From IMG/VR virus record IMGVR_UViG_2579778660_000003: a DNA stretch of 9,567 nucleotides; one strand, 5' to 3'. Below, piece by piece: positions 1 to 9,567 of this stretch. The notes under the pieces were generated by a model. It saw only the letters and a list, made by a program, of their open reading frames with translations. It was not told where the DNA came from and did not search any database. The stretch comes from a virus. Lineage: Duplodnaviria > Heunggongvirae > Uroviricota > Caudoviricetes. A program made the position numbers and the translations under genes. Numbering within the stretch: position 1 is the first letter of the stretch; every line of letters begins with the position of its first letter.

Positions 1-1053
1 TTACGGGGTAATGCCAACCGCTGCCGCCACTTTGTCGCCACTTGGCAGCGTTGCCAGAGGATTGAAACGGAGCGCCGTTTCTAGATGATCCGGTGCCAGA
101 TGTGCGTAACGCATAGTCATTTTTATATCGTGGTGTCCGAGAATTTTTTGTAAGGCCAGAATGTTTCCACCCGACATCATGAAGTGCGCCGCAAACGTAT
201 GGCGCAGAACGTGTGTGAGTTGACCGCGAGGGAGCACGATAGACGTTTTTTCCATCACGGATAAAAATTGAAAATAGCAGTCTGTGAAGAAATTGAACCC
301 ATCAAGCGCCATGATCTCTTCGTAAAGCTCTTTACTGATAGGGATGCTTCTGTTTTTCTTCCCCTTCGTTCTGACAAAGGTAATTCGGTATTTGGTCACC
401 TGTGAGCGGGTAAGATTTACGGCTTCACGCCAGCGTGCGCCTGTGCTTAAGCATATCTTAACTACCAGTGCCAGAATTGGGTCCTGACGTTTGCAATCAG
501 CCAGCAATTCAACAATCTGCTCATGGGTAAGCCATGCCATCTCTTTTTCTGCGATGGTGAATTTTCGCATGTTCTCCAGTGGGTTCGGATACGACCATTC
601 GCCCAGACGGGATAGTTCGCTAAAAACACTACTTAGATAGCTTTGCTCCAGGTTAATGGTGACCGGGCTTGCTCCTTTCTTCCATTTCTCGCTGAAGTAG
701 ATCTCGCCTGTCAGGCGTTTATCTCGATAGTGGGCAAACATTTTAGAGGTGAGATCGGTTGCAAGAGGATTGCCCAGAGCGTCAACCATCAACAGCAATT
801 TGTCATAGACATGCTGCCCAGCTGTCAGAGATTTACCATGTAGTTTGAACCATAGCTCAACCACGTCTTTCAGTGTTCGACGATCCACTGATTCACCCAG
901 CCAGGGCTTTGCTTCGGTTTCTTCCATCGTGTGGCGCTCAAAAGCCAGTGCTTCGCCTTTGGTGGCGAATTGTTTACGCACACGACGCCCACTTCGTCCG
1001 GCGGGGTAACATTCGCAAAGCCATTTCCCTGTGGTTAGTTTTCGTACTGCCAT
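1..1053 (-). CDS. int: Tyrosine integrase, P2/186 family (complete, 350 aa)
   Basis: ORF on - strand with stop TAA at 3-1 and ATG at 1053-1051. The translation shows the tyrosine-recombinase signature directly: TGARWREA (box I Arg), HVLRHTFA (His-x-x-Arg) and GHHDIKMTMRYAHL (Tyr nucleophile). The N-terminus MAVRKLTTGKW...RKQFATKGEALAFE resembles P2/186 Int as I recall it (not searched). Confidence 0.9.
   Translation of the reverse strand: MAVRKLTTGKWLCECYPAGRSGRRVRKQFATKGEALAFERHTMEETEAKPWLGESVDRRTLKDVVELWFKLHGKSLTAGQHVYDKLLLMVDALGNPLATDLTSKMFAHYRDKRLTGEIYFSEKWKKGASPVTINLEQSYLSSVFSELSRLGEWSYPNPLENMRKFTIAEKEMAWLTHEQIVELLADCKRQDPILALVVKICLSTGARWREAVNLTRSQVTKYRITFVRTKGKKNRSIPISKELYEEIMALDGFNFFTDCYFQFLSVMEKTSIVLPRGQLTHVLRHTFAAHFMMSGGNILALQKILGHHDIKMTMRYAHLAPDHLETALRFNPLATLPSGDKVAAAVGITP
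19..40. repeat. Left copy of 22-bp direct repeat CGCTGCCGCCA(C)TTTGTCGCCA; putative attL core, lying inside the int 3' end
   Basis: Seen in sequence: 19-40 matches 6713-6734 at 21 of 22 positions (C at 30 versus T at 6724), with unrelated flanks. The two copies sit at the expected prophage ends (int 3' end and just after the ogr stop). Confidence 0.5.
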
Positions 1054-1077
1054 AAAAAGCCCTCATATCAGAGGGCT
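1054..1077 (-). terminator. Putative rho-independent terminator downstream of the cargo gene, abutting the int start codon
   Basis: Stem AGCCCTC (1058-1064) / GAGGGCT (1071-1077) with a 6-nt loop. On the - strand the stem is followed by a U-rich tract (plus-strand AAAAA at 1054-1058, running into the int ATG). Not energy-scored. Confidence 0.4.
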
Positions 1078-1135
1078 AAATTTAACTGTATATGTAACCA
1101 GTAATCAATGTGTGATTACTATGAAACATACATTG

Positions 1136-2812
1136 CTAAGCAACATGTAGTTCATCGTTGGCGGAAGTGGCTGCTTTGCGCTCCTGCTCAATAGCTAGAG
1201 ACTCTCTATATTCTTTCGCCTCTGCAAACATTGTCCAGTGGGCGTTGATGTTCATGTCTTCAATAACTGATTTGATTTCTTTTAAATTTACGTTAAAAAA
1301 CTCTTTTCGTGAGTTAATTTTATTGACCTGCTTTTCGTTGAAAACTTTATGCAGATGGTTTTCTAATGATGGTGCATCATCACTATAAATCATCGCATGA
1401 ACATCGAACGAAAAAGGAACACTAGCATCTCCGAGTTCACGAACACGATCAAGTGGTTCAAGGCGGCGTGTCATTCCAATTTTATATACATCTTCGCCAA
1501 ATGAACCAATATTACTAATGATATAGACGTGGCCTGATCTGGTTTGTTGAGCCATAGAAATAGCTCGTTGATTTTTAGCTTCAGCTTCTTCATATTTTAA
1601 CTGTAGTTCAGCTATTTTTTGCTCTAAAGCTAAGCGTTGTTCTTCATTTGCAAGCATAAGTTCTTTCGTTGCTTTATTTATAGCTTGCTGAATAGCTTTT
1701 TCTTCTTTTTCAGCTTCTTTTATCGCTTTTTCATATTCTCTACGAGCTCTTTCCTCTTCACGAAGCTGTTCTTTAATCCTTCTTTGCTCTTCTTTTTCTT
1801 CGAGCATAATTTCATTAACAGCTACACCCCATTTTAGCTCGTTGAGTCTTGCCTGAAGATAGATGTCACTTATTTTTGCGGACCTAAAGGCAGAGCCATT
1901 GTAATTTACTAGTTGAAATGCATCTTTTATTTCTTGGGAAAGTTTTCCAAAATTGTTGTGTTTGACTTTTGATAAAATACTGTCAACTCTTCCATTGAAG
2001 GCATCCAAAACAAAGTTTATGGCAGTATTACGCCTGTTTTGCTCAACATAATCACACGAAGCAGCTTTATTAGTTTTTATTAATGATTTGGTTAACTCTC
2101 TGGCTTTTTGTAATTCCTTGCCTGCATCTGTAAATTCATAATTTTCTGCCAGCTCATCAAGTACACTACGGTTAGGGATGATCCATTCATCACCATAACC
2201 TTCAATTTTATTTTTCATTGATTTTGCAACTGCTTCATATTTTTCTGCAAACTCTTTAGCTTCATATGCTGAACCAGCAATCTCCTTTGCTCTTTCTTCT
2301 GCATCAGAAATAATTTTTACTGCATTGTCATTAGCATTTGAGATTAGCTCATTTGCTTTATTATTAGCATTATCAAGACGTTCTTTGGCTTTCAGGCGTG
2401 CATCGCGAGCGTCTTTGGTGATTGCTATAGCTTCGCTATTAGCGTTGCTTATTGTCATCTGAGCTTGATAATTTGCTTCGTTTACTGTTTTAGCCGCCTT
2501 AATTTGGGCTTCATCTATTTTTTGCTTGGCTATTGAGTCCGCATTTTTTATCTTATTCTCTGCATCCATTACTGCGCTGTGCAATTCTTCGTATTGCCAC
2601 AATGGTGCTGCTCGCCCTTCAAGCTCTAATAATTCTCGTACGGTCTGTGCTAGTTTTTCTTGATTTTCAATCAGTTGGTTAGAAAGGGCTATGTTGTTAG
2701 CTGTCAGGTTATCTATAGCCGCTTTGTGTTTTTTACTTTGTTTAAATAATATTACAGCTAGAACAGGGGCAAGAAATGCTAATAAGAGTATAACGATGGC
2801 AAATGAATTCAT
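1136..2812 (-). CDS. Prophage cargo protein, 558 aa: N-terminal transmembrane helix, long coiled-coil segments, DUF4041-like central region, C-terminal T5orf172/GIY-YIG-like domain; candidate anti-phage effector
   Basis: ORF with ATG at 2812-2810, preceded on the - strand by AAAGGA and a 7-nt spacer (RBS). It starts 20 nt after the cI stop. Residues 4-23 are hydrophobic (FAIVILLLAFLAPVLAVILF). Residues ~40-200 and ~335-415 are Ala/Lys/Glu/Asn/Gln-rich and coiled-coil-like. Residues ~427-517 read GHVYIISN...VYKIGMTRRLEPLDRVREL...PFSFDVHAMIYSDDAPSLENHLHKVF, which has the spacing of a GIY...YIG...R...E nuclease core (T5orf172 type). The DNA is visibly AT-rich relative to the neighbouring genes. 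Confidence 0.85.
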   Translation of the reverse strand: MNSFAIVILLLAFLAPVLAVILFKQSKKHKAAIDNLTANNIALSNQLIENQEKLAQTVRELLELEGRAAPLWQYEELHSAVMDAENKIKNADSIAKQKIDEAQIKAAKTVNEANYQAQMTISNANSEAIAITKDARDARLKAKERLDNANNKANELISNANDNAVKIISDAEERAKEIAGSAYEAKEFAEKYEAVAKSMKNKIEGYGDEWIIPNRSVLDELAENYEFTDAGKELQKARELTKSLIKTNKAASCDYVEQNRRNTAINFVLDAFNGRVDSILSKVKHNNFGKLSQEIKDAFQLVNYNGSAFRSAKISDIYLQARLNELKWGVAVNEIMLEEKEEQRRIKEQLREEERARREYEKAIKEAEKEEKAIQQAINKATKELMLANEEQRLALEQKIAELQLKYEEAEAKNQRAISMAQQTRSGHVYIISNIGSFGEDVYKIGMTRRLEPLDRVRELGDASVPFSFDVHAMIYSDDAPSLENHLHKVFNEKQVNKINSRKEFFNVNLKEIKSVIEDMNINAHWTMFAEAKEYRESLAIEQERKAATSANDELHVA

Positions 2813-2832
2813 TTTAAAATCCTTTTACTATA

Positions 2833-3429
2833 TTAATTCGAGACTATTGTACTTCTTATACAAGCAACCACTTCAATATCAGAAAATGCACATTCAAAGC
2901 TATTCTCTGCTGTTGTAATTTTAATCATTCCTTTAGGAAGCCTTGTGATTTTTCGAATGGAATAGGTTCCGTCGATATTGATTAACCAGTTTCCATCAAG
3001 TACTTCAGAAAATTTTTGATCACAAATGTATGTGACGAGTCCATCCTGAACAACAATTGGTGATGAAAGGTTTGCAGGAAGAAATGATGAATCGAAGACA
3101 TATGAACCGTCTTCAATCATTTTGCCTGCGGCAAGGCGAAACTTAACAAGCTCTTCTGTAGCTGCTGTCAGCGAGCTTTGCTTAAGGCCTTGTCCGGTAG
3201 TTAACCATTTGAGGGAGGTTCCTGTTTCAAGAGCACATTGGATTATCCAGTCAGCAGGAAATGTATCCCGCAAATACCTGTTCGCTAGTGTGCTTTTTGA
3301 TACTTCCAAGTGATCAGCTAAAGCCTGTCGTGTCGTAAAGCCATAGGCTTCGACTAATCGCTCAATCGCAGCCTTACCACCTTTATTGGGATTTATTTTG
3401 ATCTCACTTGGGTACTTTGATGTTGACAT
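2833..3429 (-). CDS. cI: 186-type CI immunity repressor (198 aa)
   Basis: ORF with ATG at 3429-3427 and TAA at 2835-2833. The N-terminal region ERLVEAYGFTTRQALADHLEVSKSTLANRY...CALETGTSLKWLTTGQG matches the phage 186 CI family HTH region as I recall it. It is divergent from the apl/cII operon, as in 186. Confidence 0.85.
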   Translation of the reverse strand: MSTSKYPSEIKINPNKGGKAAIERLVEAYGFTTRQALADHLEVSKSTLANRYLRDTFPADWIIQCALETGTSLKWLTTGQGLKQSSLTAATEELVKFRLAAGKMIEDGSYVFDSSFLPANLSSPIVVQDGLVTYICDQKFSEVLDGNWLINIDGTYSIRKITRLPKGMIKITTAENSFECAFSDIEVVACIRSTIVSN

Positions 3430-3474
3430 ATCTCTTTTGCGATCCTAGTATCAGTTTTGTACCCAATTGGGTAC
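3423..3474 (+). promoter_or_regulatory. Putative rightward lytic promoter (TTGACA-17 bp-TAGTAT) followed by a 16-bp perfect palindromic operator GTACCCAATTGGGTAC
   Basis: Seen in sequence: TTGACA at 3423-3428 (overlapping the cI start codon), a 17-nt spacer, TAGTAT at 3446-3451, then the palindrome at 3459-3474. The 10-mer TTGGGTACTT recurs at 3408-3417 and 3467-3476. Assignment as pR and a CI operator is inference from position in the cI/apl switch region. Confidence 0.4.
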
Positions 3475-3524
3475 TTGTCACGATTACTACAGGCTCACCA
3501 CAAGCCAATAGGAGATGTTGCACC

Positions 3525-3746
3525 ATGACCCCTAACATTTCAATAACTCTGAATACGCCACACGTCACAATCGAGCGTTATAGCGAACTTACTGGTCTTT
3601 CAATCGACACAATCAACGATATGTTGGCGGATGGTCGCATTCCTCGTCATCGTCTTCGTAAAGACAAGAAAAGAGAAAAGGTAATGATCAACCTTGCTGC
3701 TCTTACCGTTGATGCACTTACTGATTGCAATGTTGTATTCAACTAG
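3525..3746 (+). CDS. Apl/Cox-type excisionase and transcriptional regulator (73 aa)
   Basis: ATG at 3525 with AGGAG at 3510-3514 (10-nt spacer). Small basic protein with an HTH-like segment [26 protein letters not shown]. It is the first gene of the rightward operon opposite cI, the position of apl in 186 and cox in P2. The upstream part of the track ORF (from 3408, TTG start) overlaps cI and is rejected. Confidence 0.7.
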
Positions 3747-3778
3747 TTCCATTTTGGGATACATCAGAGGTGTCGACC

Positions 3779-4288
3779 ATGTTTGATTACCAAGTTTCCA
3801 AACATCCACATTTTGATGAAGCCTGTCGTGCATTCGCACTGCGCCACAATCTGGTGCAACTGGCAGAACGTGCGGGCATGAATGTGCAGATTCTGCGGAA
3901 CAAGCTGAACCCAGCTCAACCTCATTTATTAACCGCACCAGAAATCTGGCTGCTTACCGATCTGACTGAAGATTCAACGTTGGTAGATGGTTTTCTGGCA
4001 CAGATTCATTGTCTGCCATGTGTACCGATTAATGAGGTAGCAAAAGAGAAACTGCCGCATTACGTCATGAGCGCAACTGCAGAGATCGGGCGTGTTGCAG
4101 CAGGTGCGGTATCTGGTGATGTAAAAACTAGTGCCGGTCGTCGTGATGCTATCAGCAGCATTAACTCTGTAACACGACTGATGGCGCTGGCTGCTGTTTC
4201 ATTGCAAGCCCGTTTACAGGCTAATCCTGCGATGGCGAGTGCAGTTGATACCATGACTGGCCTTGGTGCTTCATTCGGTTTGCTGTGA
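3779..4288 (+). CDS. cII: CII-type lysogeny-establishment regulator (phage 186 CII homologue, 169 aa)
   Basis: ATG at 3779 with GAGG at 3767-3770. The translation [45 protein letters not shown]...[22 protein letters not shown] closely resembles 186 CII as I recall it. It directly follows the apl-like gene. Confidence 0.8.
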
Positions 4289-4295
4289 GGTGTTT

Positions 4296-4592
4296 ATGCT
4301 GACGAAAGAACCATCATTTGCATCGCTGCTGGTAAAACAAAGCCCGGCAATGCACTACGGTCACGGCTGGATCACGGGTGAGGATGGAAAACGCTGGCAT
4401 CCATGTCATTCACAAGATGAATTGCTGTCTGAATTGACCACGAGGAAACGGAGAAAGTCCAAATGTATGCGGCAGAAAGTGAAGTGGTTTATCAGTTTCG
4501 TTACAGAGGGGAGAGTTATTCAGTACCTGAAGATGATTTGCTCTGTTGCTATCCGTCATTGTCGGGCGATGGCAGTTACTTTTTCACGTTAA
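4296..4592 (+). CDS. Hypothetical early-operon protein (98 aa as drawn), in the position of a fil-like gene; the 3' third is doubtful
   Basis: ATG at 4296 with GAGG at 4287-4290, overlapping the cII stop. The first ~55 residues look protein-like (MLTKEPSFASLLVKQSPAMHYGHGWITGEDGKRWHPCHSQDELLSELTTRKRRK). The remainder overlaps the next, better-supported ORF out of frame and is Cys/Met/Trp-rich. Confidence 0.4.
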   Translation: MLTKEPSFASLLVKQSPAMHYGHGWITGEDGKRWHPCHSQDELLSELTTRKRRKSKCMRQKVKWFISFVTEGRVIQYLKMICSVAIRHCRAMAVTFSR

Positions 4593-4687
4593 AGGATGGG
4601 ACGTTTTTACGGGGAGAGCAGGTTAAAGAGACGATACGAAAAAATGTATCTCCTCTTGAGCGTTACCGTAAGAACAAAGAACGATAG
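4463..4687 (+). CDS. Hypothetical early-operon protein (74 aa)
   Basis: ATG at 4463 with GGAG at 4450-4453 (9-nt spacer). Balanced composition (MYAAESEVVYQFRYRGESYSVPEDDLL...). No family recognised. Confidence 0.5.
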   Translation: MYAAESEVVYQFRYRGESYSVPEDDLLCCYPSLSGDGSYFFTLKDGTFLRGEQVKETIRKNVSPLERYRKNKER

Positions 4688-4709
4688 CTGCGTTTGGGGG
4701 ATATGAAGT

Positions 4710-5051
4710 ATGGCAATTAATGGCGCTGCAGCAACTGTTCCATTAAGCCCCGGTGAACGCCTGAATGGACTTAATCACATTGCGGAGTTAAGGGCGAAAG
4801 TTTTTGGCCTGAATATTGAGTCAGAGCTTGAGCGGTTTATTAAAGATATGCGTGATCCACGGGATATCAATAATGAACAAAATAAACGGGCACTGGCTGC
4901 CATATTCTTTATGGCAAAAATTCCAGCTGAACGTCATAGCATCAGCATTAATGAGCTGACCACTGACGAAAAGCGGGAGCTGATTAAAGCAATGAATCAT
5001 TTTCGTGCAGTGGTGAGCTTATTTCCCAGACGGCTAACCATGCCGAATTAA
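4710..5051 (+). CDS. Hypothetical early-operon protein (113 aa)
   Basis: ATG at 4710, G-rich stretch upstream, same orientation and tight spacing as the neighbouring genes. No family recognised. Confidence 0.6.
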   Translation: MAINGAAATVPLSPGERLNGLNHIAELRAKVFGLNIESELERFIKDMRDPRDINNEQNKRALAAIFFMAKIPAERHSISINELTTDEKRELIKAMNHFRAVVSLFPRRLTMPN

Positions 5052-5118
5052 CCAACTAATGAAATTAATGGCGTAAACCCGCCGGGCATCCATTTATCTA
5101 AATTCAGGAGAATTGATT

Positions 5119-5352
5119 ATGCGTAATATTGAAACCCTCACGACTAAAACCGGACCGGATGACGCAGGGCTTAATATTTTACTGACAGAGGCTCGTCTGG
5201 AAGAACGCCGGGCAAGGGCTGAAGCAATGGCTGCTCGCCTTGATAGCCTGGCGTGTCATATCTCATCCCGCCAGCTAAACCACGTGGAAGCGGCAGAACT
5301 GCTGCGCGTGACTGCTGAAGCAATCCAGAACGAAGCGCAGGAGATCCACTAA
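5119..5352 (+). CDS. Hypothetical early-operon protein (77 aa)
   Basis: ATG at 5119 with AGGAG at 5106-5110 (8-nt spacer). The track ORF begins 6 nt earlier at a TTG. The stop TAA overlaps the next start (TAATG). Confidence 0.6.
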   Translation: MRNIETLTTKTGPDDAGLNILLTEARLEERRARAEAMAARLDSLACHISSRQLNHVEAAELLRVTAEAIQNEAQEIH

Positions 5353-5579
5353 TGGCTGATGCAATGGATCTCGTACAGCAGCGCGTTGAAGAAGAACGCC
5401 AGCGCCATATCCGTGCAGCCCGTGCCAAATCACCGGGCGTGTCACGCGTACTTTGCATTGAATGTGAAGCGCCAATTCCGCCAGCACGACGCCGCGCCAT
5501 TCCGGGAGTGCAGCTTTGCATTACCTGTCAGGAAATCGCAGAACTGAAAGGCAAACATTACAACGGAGGTGCTGTATGA
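5352..5579 (+). CDS. TraR/DksA-family C4 zinc-finger protein (75 aa)
   Basis: ATG at 5352 overlapping the upstream stop. Contains CIECEAPIPPARRRAIPGVQLCITCQE (CxxC-17-CxxC), typical of phage TraR/DksA-like proteins in P2-family early operons. Confidence 0.75.
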   Translation: MADAMDLVQQRVEEERQRHIRAARAKSPGVSRVLCIECEAPIPPARRRAIPGVQLCITCQEIAELKGKHYNGGAV

Positions 5580-6403
5580 GCACCATCCTGAAATGGGCGG
5601 GAAATAAAACCGCCATTATGCCAGAACTGAAAAAATACCTTCCTGCTGGCCCGCGACTGGTTGAACCTTTCGCGGGTTCCTGTGCTGTGATGATGGAAAC
5701 GGATTATCCCAGCTATCTGGTTGCGGATATTAATTCTGATTTAATCAACCTCTATAAAAAGGTTGCCGCTGATTGTGAATCGTTTATATCTCGCGCCAGA
5801 GTTTTATTTGAGATCGCAAACAGGGAGGTGGCTTATTACAACATAAGGCAGGAGTTTAACTGCTCAACTGAAATTACTGATTTCATGAAAGCGGTATATT
5901 TCCTGTATCTCAATCGTCACGGTTACCGTGGTTTATGTCGCTATAACAAGAGCGGGCATTTCAACATTCCCTACGGTAATTATAAAAATCCGTATTTCCC
6001 TGAAAAAGAACTTCGCACATTTGCAGAAAAAGCCCAACGAGCAACGTTTATCTGCGCCAGCTTTGATGAAACGCTGGCGATGTTGAAGGCGGGAGATGTG
6101 GTGTATTGCGATCCGCCATATGACGGTACGTTTTCCGGCTATGCCAACCGGGGCAACGCTGAACGGGCAGCGAAAATGCAGTGGGAACGTCTGCAACGCG
6201 GCGTTGCGTCATTCTCGCTACAACTGGCGGAAGGGCGGGCAGATCTCTACACGGAAATGCCTGTGAAGGTCAGTGGTTTTAAACAGCCGATAGATGATGC
6301 GGAATGGACCATTACGACTCTGACACATACCGTCAGCCCGGATAACGGTTTTACGACCAGTCTGGAGCTTGAAGTGAGGATTGATGATTTCGAAATGGAA
6401 TGA
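5576..6403 (+). CDS. D12-class N6-adenine DNA methyltransferase (Dam-like, 275 aa); the C-terminal ~90 aa are atypical and may be a deletion fusion
   Basis: ATG at 5576 with GGAGG at 5565-5569, overlapping the upstream stop (ATGA). The N-terminus ILKWAGNK...[11 protein letters not shown] and the catalytic DPPY (about residue 177-180) are the Dam family signature. After DPPY the sequence (…[34 protein letters not shown]) does not resemble the Dam C-terminus I remember. Confidence 0.75.
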
Positions 6404-6429
6404 TTCTTCGCAATGGAGAACTTTTAAGT

Positions 6430-6456
6430 TTGCAAAATGGAATAATGCGGTATCAT
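6430..6456 (+). promoter_or_regulatory. Possible sigma70-type promoter for ogr
   Basis: TTGCAA at 6430-6435 and TATCAT at 6451-6456, but the spacer is only 15 nt (alternative -10 CATTAT at 6454-6459 with an 18-nt spacer). Weak, position-based. Confidence 0.25.
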
Positions 6457-6493
6457 TATTGTGAATTTAGCAAAAATGGGGAGAACTCGAAAA

Positions 6494-6712
6494 ATGATGA
6501 TTTGCCCACTGTGTGGAAGTGCCGCCCATACTCGCAGCAGTTTTCAGGTATCTTCATTGACCAAAGAGCGTTACAACCAGTGCCAGAATATTAACTGCAG
6601 CCATACTTTTGTAACCCATGAAACTTTTGTTCGTTCGATTGCAACGCCAAAAGAGTCAAATCCGGTTCAGCCGCATCCAATGAAATCAGGACAGGTGGCG
6701 CTCTCTCTTTGA
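6494..6712 (+). CDS. ogr: Ogr/Delta-family zinc-finger late-gene transcription activator (72 aa)
   Basis: ATG at 6494 with GGGGAG at 6478-6483. The translation MMICPLCGSAAHTRSSFQVSSLTKERYNQCQNINCSHTFVTHETFVRSIATPKE...PHPMKSGQ matches P2 Ogr (CPLC...HQCQNVNCS...) as I recall it. Stop TGA at 6710-6712, immediately before the right repeat. Confidence 0.85.
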   Translation: MMICPLCGSAAHTRSSFQVSSLTKERYNQCQNINCSHTFVTHETFVRSIATPKESNPVQPHPMKSGQVALSL

Positions 6713-6734
6713 CGCTGCCGCCATTTTGTCGCCA
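6713..6734. repeat. Right copy of the 22-bp direct repeat; putative attR core
   Basis: CGCTGCCGCCATTTTGTCGCCA at 6713-6734 matches 19-40 at 21 of 22 positions. It lies directly after the ogr stop, where attR is expected in a P2-family prophage. Confidence 0.5.
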
Positions 6735-6798
6735 TCGTTAAAAAACAGTGCTTCTAACGTCATGATTTTAAACGGCATAAATTTCAGGCAACAAAAAA

Positions 6799-6835
6799 CC
6801 CATCAACCTTGAACCGAAATGGCGGGGGTGATGGG
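6799..6835 (-). terminator. Possible terminator hairpin downstream of ybjL
   Basis: CCCATCA (6799-6805) and TGATGGG (6829-6835) can pair, and on the - strand the stem is followed by a U-run (plus-strand AAAAAA at 6793-6798). The loop is long (23 nt), so this is weak. Confidence 0.25.
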
Positions 6836-6947
6836 CTCCACAAAATGGGGACATCAAAGAAAAGCAGTGGCACTAATTAAGACTGATGCCCTGCGGAAAA
6901 GTTCTGCGGTTGTGCAAAAAAATTTCATTTTCAGGGCAACTTCAGTT

Positions 6948-8633
6948 TTATCCTAATCCTGGCCATACCATGACGATGATTGTCCCTGCCAGCGTCAGCA
7001 GGACGTTGGCGATTGCGTAGGTGCCCGCATAGCCCAGCGCAGGGATGTTACTGCGAGCTGTATCACTGATGATCTCCATTGCCGGCGCGCAGGTGCGTGC
7101 GCCCATCATTGCGCCGAACAACAGTGCGCGGTTCATTCGCAATACATAAGCACCGAACAAGAAACAGATAACCACGGGCACAAGACTGACAATTAATCCG
7201 GCAATCAACATCTGACCGCCAATCGCGCCCAGGCCGTTATTAATACCGCTACCGGCGCTCAGACCAACGCCTGCCATAAACACCATCAAGCCGAACTCTT
7301 TCACCATGCTTAATGCACCTTGCGGAATGTAACCGAAGGTCGGGTGGTTAGCACGCATAAAGCCCAGCATAATTCCGGCGAATAACAACCCGGCAGCGTT
7401 CCCCATGCCGAAACTGAATGTGCTGAACTGGAAGGTGATCATCCCGATCATCAGCCCAATAACAAAGAAGGCGCAGAATGCCAGCAGGTCAGTGACCTGG
7501 CTGTGAATCGAGATAAAGCCGATGCGATCGGCGATGGTTTTTACGCGGCGGGCATCGCCGCTGACTTGTAAAACGTCACCTTTGTTAAGCACGACGTTGT
7601 CATCTATCGGCATCTCAATCTGGCTACGAATGACGCGGTTAAGGAAGCAACCGTGATCGGTCAACTTCAGTTGTGCGAGACGTTTACCTACAGCGTTATG
7701 GTTTTTAACGACCACTTCTTCAGTGACGATACGCATGTCGAGAAGGTCACGATCGAAAACTTCTTTACCGTTACGGAAGCTGGGATCGAGTCGGGCATGG
7801 GCGTCGGGATAGCCTACCAACGCTATTTCATCGCCCATTTGTAGCACGGCATCACCGTCTGGATTTGCCAGAATCCCGTTACGTCGAATACGTTCAATGT
7901 AGCAGCCGGTTTGTCGATAAATACCCAGTTCACGCAGATTTTTGCCGTCGGTCCAGGCCACCAGTTCCGGGCCGACGCGATAGGCGCGGATCACCGGTAA
8001 ATAAACCTTACGGTTGGCATCAGTGTCCAGGCCACGTTCGCGGGCGATTTGCTGGGCGCTGGTCTGTAAGTCCTGATGCTGCAATTTCGGCAAGTAACGC
8101 GCACCAACAATCAAACTCACCAGACCGATTAAATAGGTTAAGGCATACCCGAGGCTCAGATTATCCAGTGCCAGTGAGAGCTGCCTGCTTTCCATGCCGG
8201 AATGACGCAGTGTATCGCCAGCACCGACCAGAACCGGTGTCGACGTCATAGAGCCTGCTAACATACCGGCCGTCAGGCCAATATCCCAGCCAAACAGCTT
8301 ACCTAACCCTAAGGCGATCACCAGCGCACTGCCAACCATCACCAGTGCTAACATTAGGTAATTTTTCCCATCGCGAAAAAAAATGGAAAAAAAGTTCGGT
8401 CCGGCTTCGACCCCGACGCAGAAAATAAACAGCATAAAGCCAAGATTAAGCGCATCGGTGTTAATGCTGAAATGTTGTTGGCCTAATAACAGCGATACGA
8501 CTAAAACGCCAATGGAATTACCCAGTTGGATCGAACCAAGTCGTAACTTTCCGAGACATAGCCCAAGCGCGAGGACCACAAATAATAACAGAATGTAATT
8601 CCCATTTAACAATTCGGCGACGTTTATATTCAC
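6948..8633 (-). CDS. ybjL: Putative transporter YbjL (561 aa, multi-pass membrane protein with a central soluble region)
   Basis: The translation [39 protein letters not shown]... is the E. coli YbjL sequence as I recall it. GTG start at 8633-8631. Hydrophobic N- and C-terminal thirds flank a charged central domain. Confidence 0.9.
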
Positions 8634-8902
8634 GGAGGCTAACTTCTTGTTTACTAGTAAGCTGTTGAAAGAAATGGTAATTTACGATAATGTTTTTTAC
8701 CAGAATTCAGGGCGCAGATTCATTCAGCGCACCTAAACGATAGTAAAGTAACAATATATTTTACTAGTGTAATCACATTAGGTATCAACGGCTATATGAA
8801 TTGCGTTGGCCTATATTAGCATGGAATGCGAAGCGGCTTTATCTTACTGAACGCCACACTGGCGAAAAATGTGTTCGATAGACGCAGTGTCAGGAGGAAC
8901 GA

Positions 8903-9280
8903 GTGAAACATAAACAACGTTGGGCGGGGGCAATCTGCTGTTTTGTCCTCTTCATTGTGGTGTGCCTTTTTCTGGCGACGCACATGAAAGGCGCTTTTCG
9001 GGCTGCCGGGCATCCTGAAATCGGCTTGCTATTTTTCATTCTTCCTGGAGCAGTCGCCAGCTTCTTTTCACAGCGTAGAGAAGTCCTGAAACCTCTGTTT
9101 GGCGCAATGCTGGCGGCACCCTGTTCGATGCTCATTATGCGGCTGTTTTTTTCACCGACGCGCTCATTCTGGCAAGAGCTGGCATGGTTACTAAGCGCGG
9201 TGTTCTGGTGTGCGCTGGGGGCACTGTGTTTCTTATTTATCAGTAGTTTGTTTAAACCACAGCACAGAAAAAATCAGTAA
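8903..9280 (+). CDS. ybjM: Inner-membrane protein YbjM (125 aa)
   Basis: GTG at 8903 with AGGAGG at 8892-8897 (5-nt spacer). The translation MKHKQRWAGAICCFVLFIVVCLFLATH... matches E. coli YbjM as I recall it. It is divergent from ybjL and convergent with grxA, as in the K-12 gene order. Confidence 0.85.
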   Translation: MKHKQRWAGAICCFVLFIVVCLFLATHMKGAFRAAGHPEIGLLFFILPGAVASFFSQRREVLKPLFGAMLAAPCSMLIMRLFFSPTRSFWQELAWLLSAVFWCALGALCFLFISSLFKPQHRKNQ

Positions 9281-9299
9281 AGCCCTCAACGCGAGGGCT
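9281..9299. terminator. Hairpin between convergent ybjM and grxA (putative bidirectional terminator)
   Basis: AGCCCTC (9281-9287), loop AACGC, GAGGGCT (9293-9299), lying between the two stop codons. A U-tract is present on the - strand side (plus-strand AAAAAA just upstream at 9268-9273, after a short spacer). Confidence 0.4.
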
Positions 9300-9309
9300 T
9301 GTCAGACGA

Positions 9310-9567
9310 TCAGGCGTCCAGATTTTCTTTCACCCATGCAGCAAAATCGGTATAGCCGCCGATATGTTGCTGATCGACAAAAATCTGCGGCACGGTTTCT
9401 ACGGGTTTACCTGCCTTTTGTTGTAGATCTTCTTTAGTGATCCCTTCCGCACGAATATCTACATACTGATACTGAAAATCATCGCGTTCATTGCTCAATT
9501 TCTCAGCCAGATCTTTTGCACGCACACAGTAAGGGCAACCCGAACGACCAAAAATAACGGTTTGCAT
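9310..9567 (-). CDS. grxA: Glutaredoxin 1 (85 aa, CPYC active site)
   Basis: The translation MQTVIFGRSGCPYCVRAKDLAEKLSNERDDFQYQYVDIRAEGITKEDLQQKAGKPVETVPQIF.DQQHIGGYTDFAAWVKENLDA is E. coli GrxA. The start codon is at the window end (9567-9565). Confidence 0.95.
   Translation of the reverse strand: MQTVIFGRSGCPYCVRAKDLAEKLSNERDDFQYQYVDIRAEGITKEDLQQKAGKPVETVPQIFVDQQHIGGYTDFAAWVKENLDA

Follow-up and report, generated by a model that had tools for sequence, protein, structure and literature searches.

The closest complete relatives of the element described here are the full-length 186-like prophages of the rcdA-rybB-ybjL locus, such as E. coli BS15R-A (NZ_CP063349.1), vB_EcoM-813R9 (ON470620.1) and Klebsiella phage KP12 (OM835953.1). 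Coliphage 186 itself (NC_001317, Eganvirus) has the same gene order and switch, with cI directed leftward, apl, cII, fil and the small early ORFs rightward, and a B/ogr-type activator after D that adjoins attP. Defective members of this family are also familiar: the K-12 remnant reportedly comprises the C-terminal part of D, ogr and attR, the ogr genes of K-12 and B are both said to be functional, and retrons Ec67 and Ec86 are reportedly located in 186-related prophages. P2-like phages have defence hotspots, the main one lying between gpA and gpQ, beside cos (Rousset et al. 2022, PMC9122126; NAR 2026, PMC13586616). SNIPE has been published as a membrane-bound single-protein nuclease against siphoviruses (Saxton et al., Nature 2026, PMC13190303), which stops lambda and other siphoviruses and spares myoviruses (PMC13190303).

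In this study, we have analysed a stretch of 9,567 nucleotides (the window), which corresponds to the E. coli rcdA–rybB–ybjL locus carrying a 6,891-bp remnant of a 186-like (Peduoviridae) prophage, and which is 100% identical to NCBI GCA_000627855.1 contig JJMD01000057.1. Whereas 186 integrates in a tRNA-Ile gene, the remnant lies at the 3' end of the sRNA gene rybB, a site occupied in about 20% of E. coli genomes. In our view this island is very probably a "grounded" 186-like prophage of recent origin, whose full-length parent measured about 34 kb. The host features to its right are:

6790-6868, minus strand: rybB sRNA gene (Rfam RF00110, 100.3 bits; comparison with the empty K-12 site)
6948-9567: host flank, with ybjL at 6948-8633 (minus), ybjM at 8903-9280 (plus) and grxA at 9310-9567 (minus), from ORFs and the annotation of homologous loci

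The element is bounded by two att cores of 14 bp each, AACAAAAAACCCAT. The attR core (window 6790-6803) lies within the 3' terminator tail of rybB, and because this tail is itself the att core, a complete rybB is regenerated by the phage arm. The attL core falls just outside the window, 75-88 bp before its first position (source contig L005, 4338-4351), so that the ends given in the preliminary description (19-6734) have to be replaced by these two cores.

Comparison with an intact prophage (L003) locates the deletion and an ORF running across it:

5576-6403, plus strand: chimeric Dam'–'D ORF, 275 aa (Pfam; alignment to L003)
6140-6142, no strand: deletion junction with TAT microhomology (alignment to L003, with dam on the left, L003 9142, and D on the right, L003 36885)

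In alignments to intact prophages of the rcdA/ybjL site, the left arm ends at window 6142 and the right arm begins at 6140. Window 1-6142 is 99.85% identical to L003, and window 6140-9567 aligns to L003 36885-40312, the missing DNA amounting to 27,742-27,745 bp (about 27.7 kb) from the 3' end of dam through most of D. The right-arm segment is 100% identical to D in at least 16 genomes with an intact D. The mapping of this single junction against intact prophages of the same site bears out the earlier proposal that one internal deletion joined dam to the D/ogr region. It also confirms the loss of the replication and structural genes, since those listed in L003 between 9143 and 36887 are absent from the window: in the early part A, a DinI-like Tum homologue and two cargo ORFs; further on Q, P, O, N, M, L, X, holin, lysozyme and LysABC; and finally R, S, V, W, J, I, H, G, invertase, FI, FII, E, T, U and the 5' part of D. 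A 186-cos-like 19-mer, present in L003 at 12633, has no match in the window at up to five mismatches.

The Dam-like gene, previously counted among those kept, is in fact broken and fused in frame to the 3' end of D at window 6142. The Dam part consists of the first 189 residues of the chimera, broken off 8 residues past the DPPY motif, and the D part of the last 87 codons (264 bp) of the tail/baseplate-hub gene D, in frame. Accordingly placed Pfam matches cover residues 7-193 (MethyltransfD12, profile positions 1-201 of 253) and 182-254 (Phage_GPD). The chimera is predicted to be non-functional either as Dam or as D.

This ORF bears directly on whether the island might be a naturally compact mobile element, namely a satellite of P2/186-like helpers or a mini-phage. 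Its int, apl, both att sites and Ogr/Delta-family activator do superficially resemble the parts of a P4-like satellite, but Dam'–'D joins two genes that every full-length relative has in complete form, separated by 27 kb. Contrary to the refuting condition named in the preliminary description, intact relatives are not compact in this way: in them about 27 kb, with A, tum, cargo, cos and the capsid, lysis and tail genes, lies between dam and D-ogr. The arrangement of the window occurs in none of the complete genomes. The window has no cos site, and ORFs, Pfam and PHROGs reveal in it neither a primase/replication gene nor sid, psu or delta-like capsid-redirecting genes, which makes such an origin exceedingly improbable. 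A short-read assembly collapse joining dam and D, against which the preliminary description had cautioned, is possible a priori, and we consider its probability negligible. The two sides of the junction share only the 3 bp TAT, leaving no repeat to collapse on, and the identical 275-aa chimera is found in 4-7 contigs of separate NCBI and Logan/ENA assemblies (GCA_000627855.1, in a 338.7-kb contig; EZJ97893.1, EZK32200.1, KDA69438.1, MFL4345031.1, Logan ERR10901370), produced by separate projects and assemblers, with junction-bearing contigs of up to 338-716 kb. Moreover, 11 analogous junctions are present in complete, mostly long-read genomes.

The junction could also be the last of several nested deletions in a prophage that was already defective. 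Such stepwise erosion would be in keeping with relatives that carry more than one junction (E308 has four, three of them mapped at junction level; EC05, AHB21 and E. coli B have two each), and with the re-use of breakpoint sites, which would allow a later deletion to start at an older junction. Strain MB7671, whose host flanks are near-identical to those of the window, bears a larger remnant in which O is joined to D; its D'-ogr-attR arm, however, differs from that of the window at 13/664 positions (2%), and this rules it out as the progenitor. Given that the window holds one junction only and that intact prophages elsewhere match its right arm at 100% identity, we regard erosion in steps as quite unlikely, even though a one-step origin is not provable, as later deletions erase older junctions.

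The grounded prophage retains the following features:

1-1053, minus strand: int, tyrosine integrase, 350 aa (Pfam Int_N + Phage_integrase, E 3e-32; phrog_1)
1058-1077, minus strand: terminator-like hairpin AGCCCTC-TGATAT-GAGGGCT then TTTT, adjoining the int ATG (terminator scan)
1136-2812, minus strand: cargo gene, SNIPE / PD-lambda-1 homologue, 558 aa (PADLOC PD-Lambda-1, E 4e-120; Pfam DUF4041 + T5orf172/MUG113)
2833-3429, minus strand: cI immunity repressor of the 186-CI type, 198 aa (Pfam Phage_CI_repr + Phage_CI_C)
3408-3474, plus strand: lysis-lysogeny switch region (promoter scan; pattern searches; layout of 186 pR and CI sites)
3525-3746, plus strand: apl/cox-like excisionase and repressor, 73 aa (phrog_575 "Cox-like excisionase and repressor", E 1e-31)
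3779-4288, plus strand: cII lysogeny-establishment activator, 169 aa (Pfam Phage_CP76, E 3e-42)
4296-4592, plus strand: fil (profile scans; blastp against 186)
4463-4687, plus strand: orf74, overlapping fil (phrog_4312)
4710-5051, plus strand: DUF5347 gene (profile scans)
5119-5352, plus strand: DUF2732 gene, like 186 orf80 (profile scans; blastp)
5352-5579, plus strand: TraR/DksA zinc finger gene, like 186 orf81 (profile scans; blastp)
6429-6460, plus strand: promoter-like site 5' of ogr, TTTGCA-16-TATCAT (promoter scan; 186 pB annotation)
6494-6712, plus strand: ogr, 186-B-type C4 zinc-finger late-gene activator, 72 aa, intact (Pfam Ogr_Delta; phrog_603)

All the genes named for this DNA beforehand (int, cargo, cI, apl/cox, cII, early ORFs, TraR-like, Dam-like and ogr) were recovered from ORFs, Pfam, PHROGs and PADLOC. 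The stop codon of int is the first triplet of the window, and its product is identical to WP_000290937.1 of intact prophages and 56% identical to 186 Int (blastp). By the same comparison, identity to the 186 counterparts is 70% for CII, 68% for the TraR-like protein (orf81) and 54% for Ogr (186 B), and the small early proteins (4296-5579) are all identical to those of L003. CI is just 32% identical to 186 CI (blastp), and for this reason its immunity should differ from that of 186. The exact CI and Ogr proteins of the window are each found in at least 1000 contigs.

In the switch region, a pR-like promoter, TTGACA-17-TAGTAT, was picked up at 3423-3451 by a promoter scan, together with a perfect 16-bp palindrome, GTACCCAATTGGGTAC, at 3459-3474 and a third half-site, TTGGGTAC, at 3408-3415. 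By analogy with 186 pR, the palindrome and the half-site are putative CI operators, and the palindrome differs from the operator of 186. A simple promoter scan of the window picked up no pL-type promoter. At the other end of the element, the -10 hexamer of the promoter-like site before ogr is that of 186 pB, and a perfect palindrome, AATAATG-N6-CATTATT (6441-6460), overlaps the site; no counterpart of the CI sites annotated at 186 pB was detected upstream of the window ogr.

Judged by its sequence, the cargo is the known defence gene SNIPE/PD-λ-1. The protein matches both PADLOC PD-Lambda-1 profiles strongly and shares with SNIPE / PD-lambda-1 (PMC13190303) an N-terminal transmembrane segment, DUF4041 and a C-terminal GIY-YIG-type nuclease domain (T5orf172/MUG113). 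It differs in length, with 558 aa against about 491-496 in the profiles, and in an extended N-terminal coiled region, the profile match beginning at residue 105-122. The gene, of low GC (about 35% in the GC profile), starts 20 nt 3' of cI with a ribosome-binding site AAGGA; the short gap, the common strand and the lack of a terminator in between indicate that SNIPE and cI are most likely cotranscribed. The hairpin at 1058-1077 probably ends this transcript and holds down int expression in the lysogen. That SNIPE spares myoviruses (PMC13190303) fits its carriage by a myovirus prophage.

All together, these features allow us to propose how the remnant arose and what, as we infer from its genes, it would still express. 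A full-length prophage would have integrated at the 3' end of rybB and then suffered one illegitimate deletion of about 27.7 kb at the TAT microhomology. This event would have removed the 3'-terminal third of dam, gene A together with ori, Tum (the antirepressor under SOS control), cos and the cargo hotspot next to it, every capsid, lysis and tail gene, and all four Ogr-dependent late promoters. From its gene content, the remnant would be incapable of replication, lysis, particle formation and particle entry and, as the Tum antirepressor gene is deleted, of SOS induction or of any excision triggered from within. CI, made from a leftward lysogenic promoter, would still repress pR through the GTACCCAATTGGGTAC operator and thereby make the cell immune to phages that share its repressor, which are very common, and SNIPE, placed in the inner membrane, would cut incoming siphovirus DNA at injection, as in the published case. 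With Int, Apl, attL and attR intact, derepression of pR in trans, for instance by Tum from another 186-like phage, could lead to excision and loss of the 6.9-kb element, an event that seems possible in principle but would not be self-inducible. Ogr is intact and has its own promoter-like site, but the element no longer contains an Ogr-dependent late promoter, and any action of Ogr would be confined to other P2-like/P4-like elements, in trans.

The preliminary description considered a domesticated defence island plausible here, rather than inert debris. In a fuller form of this reading, CI, SNIPE, Int/Apl and Ogr would have been kept as beneficial and the deletion favoured for removing lethal lytic genes. 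The functions retained do look intact, as was then assumed: all retained proteins are identical to those of the intact prophage with the sole exception of S62L in SNIPE, a change private to the window protein in comparison with L003, and the cargo is a validated defence gene (PMC13190303). Gene intactness, however, is what any fresh deletion leaves. The junction is spanned in 0 of 5,426 complete E. coli genomes, the chimera protein forms a one-member cluster, and circulating intact prophages match the arms at 99.85-100% identity. A junction that is real and yet missing from all these genomes points to a young, clone-specific event, and the near-identity of the arms means that too little time has passed since the deletion for retained genes to be evidence of selection; their intact state reflects the youth of the event and does not demonstrate selection by the host.

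The argument for domestication also draws on other remnants at the rybB site. In at least 13 remnants with different deletions, int, cI, the cargo slot between these two genes, apl and ogr are all still present (13/13), the slot containing among relatives SNIPE, a KAP NTPase, a YdcA-family gene or a hypothetical gene. Four of these remnants end just past the second, cos-adjacent cargo hotspot, and one junction, common to 106 complete genomes, is fixed in a clone. Not one right breakpoint lies in the 387-bp stretch from the D stop codon to attR, whereas the final 870 bp of D contain 11. Defence genes in defective elements are also noted in a study of P2-like hotspots from 2026, which poses domestication as an open question (PMC13586616). 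Nevertheless, the remnants were found by a search that required both ends, so that the keeping of both ends is partly a product of the search; deletions of cI that leave lytic genes would be lethal, and cI retention therefore needs no benefit; and the deficit of ogr-free breakpoints is only marginal against expectation (about P = 0.03-0.08, in a post hoc test). We consider domestication an unlikely explanation of the island in the window, whereas the repeated survival of int-cargo-cI and ogr, in at least 13 independent remnants, plus the 106-genome clone, leaves some room for selection. As a separate and unexpected observation, the remnant junctions at this site re-use positions in D and are strongly enriched for TA crossovers (GGTA|TACC).

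Returning to the grounded prophage, its kinship is clearest with the full-length prophages of the rybB site, which share with it the attachment site, int, SNIPE, cI, apl, cII, fil, DUF5347, DUF2732 and traR, at 99.8-99.9% DNA identity up to window 6142, as well as the 3' end of D, ogr and attR. In addition they possess the roughly 27.7 kb missing from the window, in which lie the 3' end of dam, A, tum, the second cargo hotspot, cos and the full set of virion and lysis genes. In 186, int directly follows cI with no cargo between them, whereas the window has SNIPE at this position. The retron-Ec86-bearing E. coli B has a multiply deleted 186-like prophage at the same site, with a 402-bp D fragment, ogr and attR, but it keeps many capsid and tail genes, of which the window has none. 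In the K-12 remnant, at another locus, int and the repressor are gone and a D fragment and ogrK are left; the deletion endpoints of both the K-12 and the B prophages differ from those of the window. As in the P2-like defence hotspots, the cargo of the int-cI slot lies between conserved phage genes and varies among relatives; the gpA-gpQ hotspot has been deleted in the window, and the int-cI slot alone survives.

In E. coli K-12, the interval between rcdA and ybjL holds only the small RNA gene rybB, with a single, empty-site copy of a 14-bp core, AACAAAAAACCCAT, which corresponds to the tail of the rybB terminator. Occupied genomes carry this core in duplicate, one copy at each end of the insert, and the element in the window measures 6,891 bp from core to core. 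Its attL core falls in the source contig (L005), 75-88 bp before window position 1 and hence outside the window. A tRNA gene as the attachment site was rejected, since the window contains no tRNA genes and the site is an sRNA gene.

Ends of the element and attachment site
L005 4338: attL core AACAAAAAACCCAT
1-1053: int, tyrosine integrase gene adjoining the attachment site
6790-6803: attR core AACAAAAAACCCAT
6790-6868, minus strand: RybB sRNA, matching Rfam RF00110 over its full length (1-79) at 100.3 bits (gathering score 40)

All sequence to the left of about position 6800 is phage DNA, and the right third of the window belongs to the E. coli core genome (ybjL, ybjM and grxA, as seen from the ORFs and the annotation of homologous loci). 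The window and L005 share a private T-to-G change at position 6828 (A-to-C in the RNA), which falls within the terminator stem of RybB (5' arm) and is missing from all 15 other loci fetched, the sister Logan contig included. With this change, the predicted fold energy of RybB goes from -25.2 to -19.9 kcal/mol.

Full-length prophages of about 34.6 kb occupy rybB in many complete E. coli genomes, and their left arm is 99.8-99.9% identical to window positions 1-6142. The preliminary description had proposed that one large internal deletion joined the dam region to the D/ogr region, and that alignment with complete 186 and P2 genomes would map the junction. Alignment with the intact prophage of strain BS15R-A (L003, NZ_CP063349.1) bears out this structural interpretation and upholds the observation as a whole: the left arm stops at window position 6142, in dam, the right arm starts at position 6140, in the tail gene D (L003 36885), and the arms share TAT alone, which places the junction at 6140-6142. 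The window thus lacks 27.7 kb of L003. Lost with it are the 3' end of dam, A, a DinI-like homologue of the antirepressor gene tum, two cargo ORFs and the cos region, together with Q, P, O, N, M, L, X, holin, endolysin, LysABC, R, S, V, W, J, I, H, G, the tail-fibre invertase, FI, FII, E, T, U and the 5' 837 bp of D. The junction is in frame and creates a 275-aa protein, in which the 189 N-terminal residues correspond to Dam as far as DPPY and the final 87 come from the C-terminus of D; this chimera is unlikely to work as either Dam or D.

A 400-bp probe across the junction was searched against 5,426 complete E. coli genomes; one or other of its halves matched in 1,319, and no match spanned the junction in any of the 5,426. 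The exact chimeric protein, which forms a one-member cluster, is recorded for the NCBI assembly GCA_000627855.1, under three more NCBI protein entries and in the Logan assembly of ERR10901370, and on only 4-7 contigs, of up to 716 kb. Assembly collapse, a concern raised at the outset, finds no footing here, as there is no repeat capable of it at the junction and the chimera is present in both NCBI and Logan assemblies; the window and the NCBI contig are 100% identical, and the Logan contig departs from the window at two of 9,567 bases. The retained proteins are all those of the intact prophage, except for S62L in the cargo protein, and the D fragment is 100% identical to the D gene of intact prophages elsewhere. 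About nine substitutions, one of them non-synonymous, separate the 6.1-kb arm from its intact relatives, too few, and undatable relative to the deletion, to reveal purifying selection on the retained genes since the deletion. The deletion is young and confined to a small clone.

Pfam, PHROGs and PADLOC searches of the phage part recovered int, a 558-aa DUF4041/T5orf172 protein, a 186-type cI, an apl/cox-like gene, cII, fil, three small early genes, a TraR/DksA zinc-finger gene, the Dam-like ORF and ogr. The lysis-lysogeny switch, with divergent transcription, is therefore present (Phage_CI_repr and CI_C for CI, phrog_575 for the Cox-like Apl, Phage_CP76 for CII), and ogr, a C4 zinc-finger activator gene matching Ogr_Delta, lies downstream of the 3' fragment of D, next to the attachment site. 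Gene A with the replication origin, cos, and the P2-type capsid, lysis and tail operons are all found in collinear intact relatives and none is in the window, which confirms the earlier claim that the replication and structural genes had been lost: the element is a remnant rather than a complete phage. The fil product is 98 aa long, compared with 75 aa in 186, and fil shares 130 nt, in a different frame, with a conserved 74-aa ORF (phrog_4312; joint span 4296-4687); one gene caller merged the two spans into a single gene (L005 8721-9112).

The cargo protein, encoded between int and cI, matches both PADLOC PD-Lambda-1 profiles (E from 1e-116 to 4e-120). PD-λ-1 is now named SNIPE, an inner-membrane-anchored protein with DUF4041 and a GIY-YIG nuclease that cuts phage DNA during injection, protecting against lambda and many siphoviruses, with no protection against the myoviruses or podoviruses tested, and leaving an already resident prophage unharmed (PMC13190303). 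The cargo protein has the same architecture as the published SNIPE, an N-terminal transmembrane helix followed by DUF4041 and a GIY-YIG-type nuclease (PMC13190303).

Domains of the cargo protein, from its sequence and Pfam
Residues 4-24: hydrophobic segment
Residues 267-322: DUF4041
Residues 427-520: T5orf172/MUG113

Since SNIPE spares resident prophages and the myoviruses tested, its specificity would fit carriage by a myovirus prophage. The gene has a GC content of about 35%, against 45-50%, and starts 20 nt past cI, in the same orientation and behind a ribosome-binding site of its own; it is presumably read with cI from the lysogenic promoter. On its 3' side a hairpin with a T run abuts the start codon of int. 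This hairpin (1058-1077, minus strand), G+C-rich and followed by TTTT, is identical in sequence in intact relatives and probably terminates the cI-SNIPE transcript. No obvious ribosome-binding site precedes int.

A pR-like promoter lies between cI and apl, in a layout that resembles 186 pR with its CI sites.

3423-3451: pR-like promoter, flanked by the perfect palindrome GTACCCAATTGGGTAC and a third half-site

The exact CI protein is found on at least 1000 contigs; it should silence the early operon and make the host immune to phages that share this repressor. Since Tum has been lost, the element is not expected to respond to SOS induction, and the loss of A, the origin, cos and the late genes should leave it unable to replicate, lyse the cell or be packaged. 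Given derepression of pR in trans, excision would be possible, because Int, Apl and both att sites are kept. The ogr gene is intact and preceded by a promoter-like site, whose -10 hexamer is the same as that of 186 pB. Control of ogr by CI through the pR operator, in the manner of 186, found no support, as a pattern search found copies of GTACCCAATTGGGTAC and its half-site only at 3408-3474 and none near ogr. A different perfect palindrome, AATAATG-N6-CATTATT (6441-6460), overlaps the -10 hexamer TATCAT upstream of ogr; being unrelated to the pR operator, it raises the prospect that ogr may be regulated by something other than a pR-type CI site. No Ogr-dependent late promoter survives in the element, so that any role of Ogr would be in trans. 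A reading of the element as a P4-like satellite was rejected for lack of a cos site: a 186-cos-like 19-mer is absent from the window even with up to 5 mismatches allowed, and primase, sid and psu families are absent among its ORFs.

Of the 5,426 complete genomes, 1,063 contain the rcdA-attL-int junction and 1,105 the ogr-attR-ybjL junction, which puts occupancy of rybB at about 20%. With the source contig as probe, the two arms lie within about 11 kb of each other in 201 genomes, which must accordingly carry truncated prophages. Thirteen differently deleted remnants were mapped onto L003, and none of the 13 has lost int, the cargo slot, cI, apl or ogr. This pattern is compatible with selection for an immunity and defence module. 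The search, however, required both ends, so that their retention is partly built in, and loss of cI would be lethal while lytic genes remain. A second, differently biased sample yielded remnants with the right breakpoint in the tape-measure gene (EC71, E92, AHB21 and EC05). Domestication of the remnant is therefore possible but unproven. The view of the remnant as a domesticated defence island thus goes beyond the evidence, which for its junction says only that it is new: vertical persistence in a diversified lineage was not found (0 of 5,426 genomes, with the chimera on 4-7 contigs).

Truncated prophages are able to persist through clonal expansion, as a junction between the terminase gene P and D (the YD786 type) is common to 106 complete genomes. 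This remnant of about 17 kb, seen at positions 4426-21236 of L010 (NZ_CP013112.1) and in 105 further genomes, joins P to a 129-bp fragment of D; it has a different int-cI cargo and, at a cos-adjacent hotspot, a protein with an HsdR N-domain and a P-loop NTPase. At the same rybB site, E. coli B has a 186-like prophage with multiple deletions (L014, NZ_CP115179.1, 1-13768), in which a retron-type reverse transcriptase lies beside the portal gene and the right end consists of fragments of an invertase and of D (402 bp), followed by ogr. The host flanks of strain MB7671 (L009, NZ_CP127848.1) and L005 show 0-1 mismatch in 2.9 kb on each side, and their truncated prophages differ. The MB7671 remnant was rejected as the progenitor of the one in the window, since the D'-ogr arms are 2% apart despite the near-identical flanks; the same flanks, different remnants and divergent arms imply either independent lysogenisation or recombinational replacement of a prophage segment in one host background.

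The breakpoints themselves show an unexpected regularity. Among 17 junctions from 13 truncated prophages, mapped on L003 coordinates 6985-37088, TA is present in the microhomology of 12, compared with 3.6% of random junctions simulated with microhomologies of 2 nt or more. The retained left side is often GGTA and the retained right side is TACC at three sites, the product being GGTACC at three junctions; the window junction, GGC-TAT-GCC, fits the TA pattern. Right breakpoints also cluster: those of 11 independent remnants, the window included, fall in the 870 bp at the 3' end of D, and no remnant breaks inside ogr.

L003 36280-37088, of which window 6143-6403 is the counterpart: 3' end of D

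Three right-hand sites were each used twice with different left partners (L003 36389/36392, 36746 and 36822/36823), ATACCCGC being common to two of them, and a left-hand site in cII (L003 7111/7113) was also used twice. Three of the 14 GCGGTA sites in the prophage served as breakpoints, one of them twice, and an additional breakpoint is two bases off a fourth.

Several known activities were weighed as sources of this regularity. Chi sites as a cause of the clustering in D were rejected, as D has none and L003 has only those at 19241 and 38703. The tail-fibre invertase was not supported, as its natural sites (L003 27649 and 29521) have their crossover at TT/AA after ...ACC rather than at TA. 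Nicking by the A protein at origin-like sites was discarded because the 186 ori region is without the GGTA/TACC motif; by blastn, this region has no nucleotide similarity to L003. Restriction of the KpnI type (GGTACC) was not supported either: the prophage lacks this hexamer, yet GGTACC is outside the most-avoided palindromes. The TA/GGTACC junction bias is the most interesting lead from the locus. One mechanism, which we consider doubtful, is that sequence-biased breakage and joining would repeatedly trim 186-like prophages at rybB to a minimal int-defence-cI module plus ogr. Crossovers would occur at TA, typically with GGTA on the left and TACC on the right, and would return to favoured sites within the final 870 bp of D. 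Selection would preserve ogr for an action in trans, for instance upsetting the timing of late genes in incoming P2-like phages or assisting P4-like satellites resident in the cell. Were this so, the window would exemplify a recurrent path by which a phage becomes a host defence locus.

Taken alone, the remnant is routine prophage decay, of little weight: it is a new, strain-specific, defective P2/186-type prophage with a defence cargo, of a kind already well known. It does show that a phage-borne defence gene, SNIPE, and a repressor can be fixed as chromosomal assets in one step: without Tum, A, cos and the lysis genes, a prophage that endangers its host becomes an immunity-and-defence cassette that can no longer be induced. 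The comparative result is more useful than the single remnant, as the rybB site offers a natural series of independently truncated prophages, in which shared retention and specific junctions provide a tractable system for asking whether 'domestication' arises by selection, mutational bias, or both.

With respect to coliphage 186, gene order is alike and protein identities range from 32% (CI) to 70% (CII), with 54% between Ogr and 186 B. The term '186-like' therefore holds at the level of architecture; the element is distinct from 186 itself and has a different immunity. Between int and cI, relatives carry SNIPE, a KAP-family NTPase accompanied by another CI-like gene, a member of the YdcA family or a hypothetical gene, and at least two types of cI are found at this slot, one of 198 aa and the other of 189 aa or longer.

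Variable int-cI slots in relatives
L018 (NZ_OZ547226.1) 1640-4726
L017 1742-2518
L010 5570-7404

The different genes found there in relatives point to the int-cI slot as a small cargo-and-immunity hotspot, of the kind described for P2-like phages (PMC9122126, PMC13586616).
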